This document shows positions 5,885-6,694 of a stretch of DNA of 64,000 bases, one piece after another. Every line of letters starts with the position of its first letter. Position 1 is the first letter of the stretch. The DNA comes from Escherichia phage A6-6. The notes beneath the pieces were generated by a model. That model did no database searches. It saw nothing but the letters and a program-made list of their open reading frames with translations, and was not told where the DNA came from. The stretch is taken from sequence record PQ510734.1; one strand, 5' to 3'. The translations under genes and the position numbers were made by a program.

Positions 5885-6218
5885 AATTTTGGTTTTATGT
5901 ATAGGATTAATTTCATTTTCTGCGTTAGCAGATACATCATATACTGAAATTAGAGAGTATGTAAACCGTACTGCTGCGGATTATTGCGGGAAAAATAAAG
6001 CATGCCAAGCTGAATTTGCGCAGAAATTAATATATGCATATAAAGACGGAGAAAGAGATAAATCAAGCAGATACAAAAATGATACATTGTTAAAACGATA
6101 TGCTAAAAAGTGGAATACCTTAGAATGTTCAGTTGCGGAGGAGAAAGATAAAGCCGCTTGTCATTCAATGGTTGACCGTTTGGTAGATTCTTATAATCGA
6201 GGATTGAGTACTAGATGA
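5877..6218 (+). CDS. secreted hypothetical protein (113 aa)
   Basis: Signal peptide MTKILVLCIGLISFSALA; vs-like position. Confidence 0.45.
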   Translation: MTKILVLCIGLISFSALADTSYTEIREYVNRTAADYCGKNKACQAEFAQKLIYAYKDGERDKSSRYKNDTLLKRYAKKWNTLECSVAEEKDKAACHSMVDRLVDSYNRGLSTR

Positions 6219-6694
6219 TTGTAAAATATATCAAGGGCGATATTGTCGCCCTATTTCTTCAAGGTAATATTATTGCGCACGGGTGCAATTGCTTTCACAC
6301 AATGGGCTCTGGTGTAGCAGGTCAATTAGCAAGAGCCTATCCCAAAATTTTAGAAATAGATAAAACCACTACCGAGTACGGTTCTCGTGATAAATTAGGC
6401 GATATGTCTATTGTTTTTAAACATAGTCCTACAGGATTTGGTATATGCTATAACCTGTATACGCAATACGAACCGGGTCCTAATCTTGATTATGGTGCTT
6501 TAGTAAACTGCATGATAGAATTAAATCTACAGGCAGAAACCCTTTTGTTTAAACCAGTAATTTACATTCCACGCATAGGTTGCGGTATTGCTGGTGGTGA
6601 TTGGGATAAGGTTTCTAAATTAATCGACATGTTTACTCCTGATATTGATTTAATAGTGGTAGATTATGAAAGTACATTACCCGCATCCGTTTGA
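6215..6694 (+). CDS. macro-domain protein (ADP-ribose binding/processing)
   Basis: Macro signature HGCNCFHTMGSGVAGQLARAYP and glycine-rich IGCGIAGGDW. Confidence 0.6.
   Translation: MIVKYIKGDIVALFLQGNIIAHGCNCFHTMGSGVAGQLARAYPKILEIDKTTTEYGSRDKLGDMSIVFKHSPTGFGICYNLYTQYEPGPNLDYGALVNCMIELNLQAETLLFKPVIYIPRIGCGIAGGDWDKVSKLIDMFTPDIDLIVVDYESTLPASV

Follow-up and report, generated by a model that had tools for sequence, protein, structure and literature searches.

The window analyzed here comprises 64,000 nucleotides of Escherichia phage A6-6 (PQ510734.1), a Tequatrovirus genome in which a short gene lying between vs and tk.3 encodes a predicted stand-alone macrodomain protein. The 3.1 kb around this gene match Shigella phage ESh26 at 99% and hundreds of Tequatrovirus genomes at 97-98%. 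Genes follow one another in the order regB, vs.1, vs, tk.4, tk.3, three small open reading frames (ORFs) and tk, in agreement with the regB-tk early cluster to which a sequence-only reading of the same DNA had assigned the macrodomain gene. The gene, its start region and the named genes around it are located as follows.

6215-6694, plus strand: tk.4/adfM-type gene, encoding a stand-alone macrodomain protein of 159 amino acids (ORF read from ATG to TGA)
6199-6218, plus strand: translation start region, with GAGGA at 6199-6203, 11 nucleotides upstream of the ATG at 6215-6217
4870-5331: regB
5339-5884, plus strand: vs.1, 181 amino acids
5877-6218, plus strand: vs
6666-6878: tk.3
7446-8027: tk

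The ORF and the two motifs on which the sequence-only reading had relied are present exactly as it gave them, with GCNCFHTMGSGVAGQLARAYP spanning residues 23-43 of the window protein and IGCGIAGGDW spanning residues 121-130. The stop codon of vs (TGA, 6216-6218) shares bases with the tk.4 start codon to form ATGA, and the stretch 6199-6218 is the same in T4; this arrangement is consistent with translational coupling of tk.4 to vs. Promoter-like sites showed no enrichment between 4000 and 8200 (12 found against 16.2 expected), and a terminator scan of the plus strand over the same interval returned, near tk.4, only a palindrome inside the coding region. Two other ORFs inside 6215-6694 (6411-6503 on the plus strand and 6633-6842 on the minus strand) were set aside, being short and listed in no annotated phage record examined.

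To characterize the encoded domain, we combined sequence, profile and structure searches. Pfam returned a single match, the Macro family PF01661 (E=1.3e-7, profile positions 2-117 of 118), at 32 bits against a gathering cut-off of 22 bits, while in PHROGs the protein falls into phrog_335, which carries the label "phosphatase" (E=1.2e-71). The best matches of a sequence search against the PDB were Bacteroides BT1257, yeast Poa1p, Streptomyces SCO6735, M. tuberculosis DarG and human TARG1, and a profile built from 46 relatives matched solved macrodomains with E-values between 5e-20 and 6e-10. The AlphaFold2 model built on the alignment of those 46 relatives reached a mean predicted local distance difference test (pLDDT) score of 94.4 and a predicted template-modeling (pTM) score of 0.89. 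Foldseek against the PDB matched this model, with probability 1.00, to TARG1, Poa1p, BT1257, the Thermus and Mycobacterium DarG proteins and SCO6735 at TM-scores of about 0.7-0.8, and the model shows the three-layer alpha/beta/alpha fold of macrodomains. The NCBIfam and PADLOC models of DarG also matched (E=1.5e-6 and E=5e-7, respectively), both over the macro part only. By homology and predicted structure, the window protein belongs, as a stand-alone macrodomain, to the ALC1-like class of TARG1, DarG and SCO6735, a result that bears out the macrodomain call made from the letters alone.

The gene occupies the tk.4 slot of T4 and T2 (vs, tk.4, tk.3), and its product is 58% identical to the T4 protein over 155 residues (E=1e-70). 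Because the slot and the PHROG are the same and the homology is full-length, the window gene is assigned as the ortholog of T4 tk.4 (NP_049723.1), now renamed adfM, for anti-DarT factor macrodomain. The two proteins agree at H22, N25, the NLYTQ motif and the glycine-loop positions, and they differ in length (155 amino acids in T4 against 159), the C-terminus of the window protein being four residues longer. Homologs of tk.4 occur in about 2,800 phage records, and macrodomains were present in 41% of myoviruses in a published survey (PMC9503650). Names given in GenBank to near-identical copies are "macro domain protein" in phage teqdroes and "phosphatase" or "RNase III inhibitor" elsewhere; for Tk.4 itself, T4 RefSeq has "phosphatase; contains A1pp phosphatase motif". 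The labels "RNase III inhibitor" and O-acetyl-ADP-ribose deacetylase were rejected, as the protein scores 15.7 bits with one NCBIfam equivalog model (cut-off 291) and 11.5 bits with another (cut-off 252); the former label stems from the MacroD/YmdB type, and E. coli YmdB ranks only 34th among the Foldseek matches.

The residues expected to contact ADP-ribose were located by alignment, and their conservation was counted over 122 family members. The relevant segments are listed below.

6239-6241, plus strand: codon of D9 in the KGD motif, the adenine-contacting Asp position, aligned with the KGD of TARG1
6278-6322, plus strand: HGCNCFHTMGSGVAG, residues 22-36, with H22, N25 and the first phosphate-binding GxG loop
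6452-6466, plus strand: NLYTQ motif, residues 80-84, with Q84 (codon CAA, 6464-6466) at the catalytic position
6569-6604, plus strand: PRIGCGIAGGDW, residues 119-130, second glycine-rich ADP-ribose-binding loop

Position 9 is occupied by D in 90 of the 122 sequences and by N in 30. H22, G23 and N25 are kept in 120 relatives, the other two having gaps, and G33, A35, N80, Y82 and Q84 are invariant throughout. In the second loop, P119, G122, G124 and W130 are invariant or nearly so, G122 and G124 being found in all 120 sequences that have a residue there. PRIGCGIAGGDW is nearly identical to PRIGCGLAGGTW of SCO6735 and PRIGCGLAGGKW of BT1257, and it aligns with PRIGCGLDRLQW of TARG1. The ADP-ribose-binding set (D9, N25, G31-S-G33 and G122-C-G124-I-A-G127-G128) is retained in the window protein and across the 122 relatives, and it aligns with TARG1, SCO6735 and DarG. 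Family, fold and ligand residues together support the proposal of the sequence-only reading that the protein would bind or hydrolyze ADP-ribose conjugates. Of the roles attached to that proposal, the one against DarT has experimental support on the T4 ortholog, and those against Thoeris and in reversing the phage's own marks have none: no search gave supporting evidence for an anti-Thoeris role, with nothing tying the ALC1-like class to Thoeris signals, and the phage marks are taken up below.

The catalytic position distinguishes subclasses within the ALC1-like class. H22 and N25 align with H24 and N27 of SCO6735, and N25 also with the Asn of M. tuberculosis DarG, while in the profile alignment to TARG1, Q84 falls on the catalytic K84 and A126 on D125. 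The correspondence between Q84 and SCO6735 Q85 runs through P0094, a Pelagimonas homolog 40% identical to the window protein, and through the invariant family columns. P0094 aligns directly with SCO6735 and M. tuberculosis DarG, its N-x-Y-T-Q matching N-M-I-G-Q of SCO6735 and N-F-P-T-K of DarG. Counting the 5E3B chain with a 20-residue tag reproduces the published mutant numbering (H24, V25, N27, K34, Q85 and K89), and since the tag-corrected numbering fits these mutants, the Gln of 5E3B is SCO6735 Q85 (PMC9411070). When a C-terminal fragment was searched against the PDB for a direct alignment with SCO6735 at Q84, the local alignment covered the second loop only. The Gln, His and Asn that mark the SCO6735 subclass are all found (Q84, H22 and N25), and the Lys of TARG1 (K84), DarG (K80) and PhiKZ AdfM (K78) is replaced in the window protein by the Gln of T83-Q84. 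The T4-type AdfM family, the window allele included, is on these alignments of the Gln type represented by SCO6735, not of the Lys type represented by DarG and PhiKZ AdfM.

The feature itself is already known: the domain has been annotated for years, and an anti-DarTG2 role of the T4 ortholog is published. When a T4 transposon library was challenged with a DarTG2-expressing host, tk.4 was the only significant hit, and a clean knock-out made T4 DarTG2-sensitive, upon which the gene was renamed adfM (10.1101/2025.11.20.689424, a 2025 preprint); DarT was among the defenses that the sequence-only reading had suggested the protein might counter. In PhiKZ, gp104 (also AdfM) strips ADP-ribose from DarT2-modified DNA in vitro and protects the phage, with N23 and K78 in its active site and loss of activity in N23A (PMC13309987, 2026). 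SCO6735 cleaves thymidine-linked ADP-ribose from DNA, an activity abolished by Q85A or Q85E; its Q85 takes the place of DarG K80 and TARG1 K84, and an attack by activated water has been proposed (PMC9411070). T-even phages are also equipped against DarTG1, with the NADAR enzyme AdfN encoded by gene 30.3 and AdfA by gene 61.2 (PMC11825919).

In the light of these data, the window protein is probably an ADP-ribosyl hydrolase of the Gln-type, ALC1-like class that reverses DarT2-made thymidine ADP-ribosylation on phage DNA. In the proposed mechanism, tk.4 would be made from the regB-vs-tk transcription unit, and the host toxin DarT2 would put ADP-ribose on thymidines of single-stranded phage DNA. 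The ADP-ribose would be bound in a cleft lined by D9, N25 and two loops, GSG and IGCGIAGG, where Q84 would position the distal ribose for attack by an activated water, as proposed for SCO6735. Cleavage of the ribose-thymine bond would allow replication to go on, the protein acting as an orphan antitoxin. We infer hydrolysis of thymidine-linked ADP-ribose by the window allele from these relatives; SCO6735-style, Gln-dependent chemistry is the most likely route because the catalytic position holds an invariant Gln and not a Lys, and a lysine-based mechanism is unlikely.

Comparison with characterized systems delimits this assignment. SCO6735 (PDB 5E3B) is likewise a stand-alone ALC1-like macrodomain with Gln at the catalytic position and an almost identical PRIGCGLAGGxW loop (profile E=6e-16), although the two proteins are only 26% identical in the Foldseek alignment and SCO6735 is encoded by a bacterial DNA-damage-inducible gene, not a phage counter-defense gene. 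The DarG2 macrodomain (5M31/5M3E from T. aquaticus and 5M3I from M. tuberculosis) has the same fold class, with TM-scores of 0.73-0.77, the same conserved Asn and the same proposed substrate, thymidine-ADP-ribose on single-stranded DNA. DarG differs in its catalytic Lys (K80, in a TK motif), where the window protein has Gln, and in having a C-terminal DarT-binding domain and a place beside darT, whereas the window protein is a 159-residue orphan between vs and tk.3. The NCBIfam DarG2 equivalog (NF048014) does not accept the window protein, which covers only profile positions 2-142 of 338. PhiKZ gp104 resembles the window protein as a phage-encoded orphan macrodomain that counters DarTG2; it is a remote relative of T4-type AdfM (BLASTP E=0.001 over 23 residues, hhalign probability 96%), of the Lys type (N23, K78), imported into the phage nucleus and expressed late, and probably represents an independent acquisition. 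The hhalign alignment of the family profile with gp104 is low-confidence and offset by two positions in the catalytic region, and that region was not used for the Lys/Gln comparison. By fold and by profile, the top matches are human TARG1/OARD1, yeast Poa1p and Bacteroides BT1257: BT1257 has the N-x-x-x-Q motif and the second loop in common with the window protein, Poa1p is an ADP-ribose-1''-phosphate (Appr1p) phosphatase, and TARG1 acts on Glu-linked protein ADP-ribose through a K84/D125 dyad, at whose positions the window protein has Q84 and A126.

Several observations weigh against a DNA-directed hydrolase. Removal of ADP-ribose from DNA by T4 AdfM was inferred by its authors, who report no assay of it (10.1101/2025.11.20.689424), and the window allele shares only 58% identity with the T4 protein that was tested experimentally. 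Foldseek and hidden Markov model (HMM) scores cannot separate DNA-specific from protein- or metabolite-specific macrodomains, TARG1 and Poa1p scoring like DarG. The window protein reaches 27.7 bits against the NCBIfam DarG cut-off of 250 and lacks the toxin-binding C-terminal domain of DarG. Moreover, the DNA-binding lysines K34 and K89 of SCO6735 correspond to S32 and G88, and a pI of 5.0 and a net charge of about -5 mark the window protein as acidic (T4 Tk.4 has pI 5.9).

One alternative, which we regard as unlikely, is that the substrates are small ADP-ribose metabolites, the protein being a Poa1p-like Appr1p phosphatase or an O-acetyl-ADP-ribose deacetylase that would clear by-products left by RNA repair or by NAD-consuming defenses of the Sir2/TIR type. 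This would agree with the phosphatase label and A1pp motif given by PHROG 335 and RefSeq, and with the presence of Poa1p among the best matches, at E=1.6e-9 by single-sequence search and 7.8e-15 by profile. By our own count, Poa1p H23 and S30, which are mutated in solved structures, align with H22 and T29 of the window protein, a match that is also common to SCO6735-type enzymes and hence does not discriminate. A survey from the Aravind group adds that many phage macrodomains may favor soluble ADP-ribose derivatives (PMC9503650). Against metabolite processing, DarTG2 sensitivity is the sole reported phenotype of the T4 ortholog, and the O-acetyl-ADP-ribose deacetylase models reach just 11-16 bits where their cut-offs exceed 250. 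Many macrodomains show some weak Appr1p phosphatase activity in vitro as a secondary function, and to our knowledge T4-type phages, with their Pnk/Rnl repair pathway, have no Tpt1/KptA step that would yield Appr>p or Appr1p.

A role in removing ADP-ribose from proteins, whether the marks set by Alt, ModA and ModB or Glu/Asp marks made by host or defense ADP-ribosyltransferases, is quite improbable. The top fold match, TARG1, is a Glu-ADP-ribose hydrolase, SCO6735 de-modifies auto-modified PARP1 in vitro, and the phage encodes both ModB and ModA, at the position indicated by the sequence-only reading.

51382-52005, plus strand: ModB, 207 amino acids, 95.7% identical to T4
52002-52604, plus strand: ModA, 200 amino acids, 98.5% identical to T4

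These two genes are adjacent, with an overlap of 4 nucleotides, and encode paralogs at about 28% identity. Alt, ModA and ModB modify arginine. Taking ADP-ribose off arginine is the task of ARH/DraG-type enzymes and not of ALC1-like macrodomains (PMC8120803, table). In addition, some 45 kb separate tk.4 from modA/modB, no operon links them, and the Lys/Asp catalytic dyad of TARG1 is absent (Q84 and A126). Reversal of Alt, ModA or ModB marks was rejected as the main function on the grounds of the arginine linkage and the lack of any genomic link; the sequence-only reading had offered a reversal of phage ADP-ribosylation as one possibility, but cleavage of the arginine linkage is not known for the TARG1/DarG class.

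The window allele of tk.4 is set apart from that of T4 by a sharply bounded cassette, mapped by sliding identity and alignment to T4, with the following elements.

6253-6700, plus strand: divergent allele cassette, about 45-75% nucleotide identity to T4, with flanks at 97-100%
6234-6252, unstranded: palindrome AGGGCGATATTGTCGCCCT, 19 nucleotides, G+C-rich, codons 7-13; divergence from T4 begins at 6253
6666-6694, plus strand: tk.4/tk.3 overlap, 29 nucleotides, against only 4 in T4 and T2

Identity to T4 is perfect through 6252, drops to about 45-75% up to roughly 6700 and recovers in tk.3. The cassette starts 38 nucleotides inside tk.4, so that the replacement is nearly gene-exact, and this divergent cassette is about 65% identical to T4 at the nucleotide level. 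The palindrome that ends where divergence begins is a possible recombination junction, or else a chance hairpin caught by the terminator scan. Toward the 3' end, the window allele lacks 13 nucleotides relative to T4 and reads on into tk.3. T4 and T2 encode the same Tk.4 protein, to which the window protein is 58% identical, while the RegB, Vs.1, Vs and Tk proteins are 99% identical to their T2 counterparts. The first 45 codons show 15 synonymous and 7 non-synonymous differences from T4, which indicates that protein similarity in this part results from purifying selection and not from recent exchange. Identity to the T4 protein is 24-53% in residues 46-79, 97-115 and 131-155 and 67-84% in the ligand-binding loop segments; in the second loop, the window protein has the family consensus IGCGIAGGDW, against IGAGIGKGNW in T4. 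Of the phage records in GenBank, 312 match the window allele at 90% identity or above, 224 have the T4 type and 159 belong to a third class, about 84% identical to T4 (80-90%).

These features are compatible with modular exchange at a locus of accessory or counter-defense function. A further interpretation, which we put forward as speculative and rather unlikely, is that tk.4/adfM is a balanced, recombining polymorphism under arms-race selection, whose alleles may differ in their targets. If so, the alleles may neutralize different DarT2 lineages by toxin binding, or may act on different ADP-ribose linkages or nucleic-acid substrates, in every case by a mechanism based on Gln. A second hypervariable patch lies between the conserved tk.3 and tk: the small ORFs 7078-7254 and 7251-7436 (plus strand), which lie around tk.2/tk.1 just before tk, reach only 54-61% identity with T2, and two small genes of the window and T2 are missing from T4.

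The cassette also bears on the suggestion, in our judgment very improbable, that DarT2 or another ADP-ribosyltransferase toxin is neutralized mainly by binding, with hydrolysis dispensable and the alleles tuned to different toxins. The sharp bounds of the cassette, the concentration of variation outside the ligand-binding loops and the at least three allele classes common among sequenced phages would agree with such tuning. Catalytically dead SCO6735, DarG and TARG1 inhibit DarT in vitro, SCO6735 most strongly (PMC9411070), and the other anti-DarT factors AdfA and AdfB are proposed direct inhibitors. However, the binding and catalysis residues are kept in every relative that has a residue there, which points to selection on enzymatic activity, and PhiKZ AdfM loses its function in N23A. 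Mosaic replacement of accessory genes is, moreover, common in T4-type phages whatever the function of these genes. That the protein counters some other nucleic-acid ADP-ribosylating defense instead of or besides DarT2, such as the RNA ADP-ribosyltransferase CmdT, is highly unlikely: it has been suggested that further systems which ADP-ribosylate DNA or RNA may be detoxified by anti-DarT factors (PMC11825919), and a divergent allele could reflect a different substrate, but T-even phages are reported to be CmdTAC-sensitive though they carry tk.4 (PMC11618068).

Other loci of the window add to the picture of this phage. The gene 61.2 slot between sp and 61.1, which in T4 encodes the anti-DarT1 factor AdfA, holds an ORF of 118 amino acids (46175-46531, plus strand) whose match to the 208-residue T4 61.2 protein is confined to the last 135 residues, at 32% identity; as read from the sequence, this second anti-DarT locus is strongly divergent or truncated in the window phage. 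The dmd gene (45369-45551) is 100% identical to that of T4. Upstream of tk.4, vs.1 encodes a protein with an N-terminal signal-like hydrophobic segment, which belongs to a PHROG with no assigned function and is mislabeled as a "RegB domain" protein in some GenBank records. The vs product is a modifier of valyl-tRNA synthetase. In the window, vs lacks 6 nucleotides near 5900-5939 relative to T4, giving a protein of 113 instead of 115 amino acids. In T4, vs is reported to be the most depleted gene in minimal medium by HIDEN-SEQ (10.1101/2025.11.20.689424).

The preferred reading, a Gln-type hydrolase that reverses DarT2 modification of phage DNA, also has implications for where this family came from and how far results on T4 extend. 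The shared active-site type suggests that the ancestors of T4-type AdfM were stand-alone bacterial macrodomains of DNA repair and not DarG itself. The Pelagimonas homolog P0094, which stands alone with no DarT neighbor, gives weak support to a non-DarG origin, as a single case. A mechanism based on Gln, not Lys, is previously unremarked for phage anti-DarT factors, and such an active site predicts that Q84A and N25A would be dead. Because the alleles diverge this far within otherwise near-identical genomes, results obtained with T4 would not be transferable untested to other T-even phages, therapeutic candidates included.

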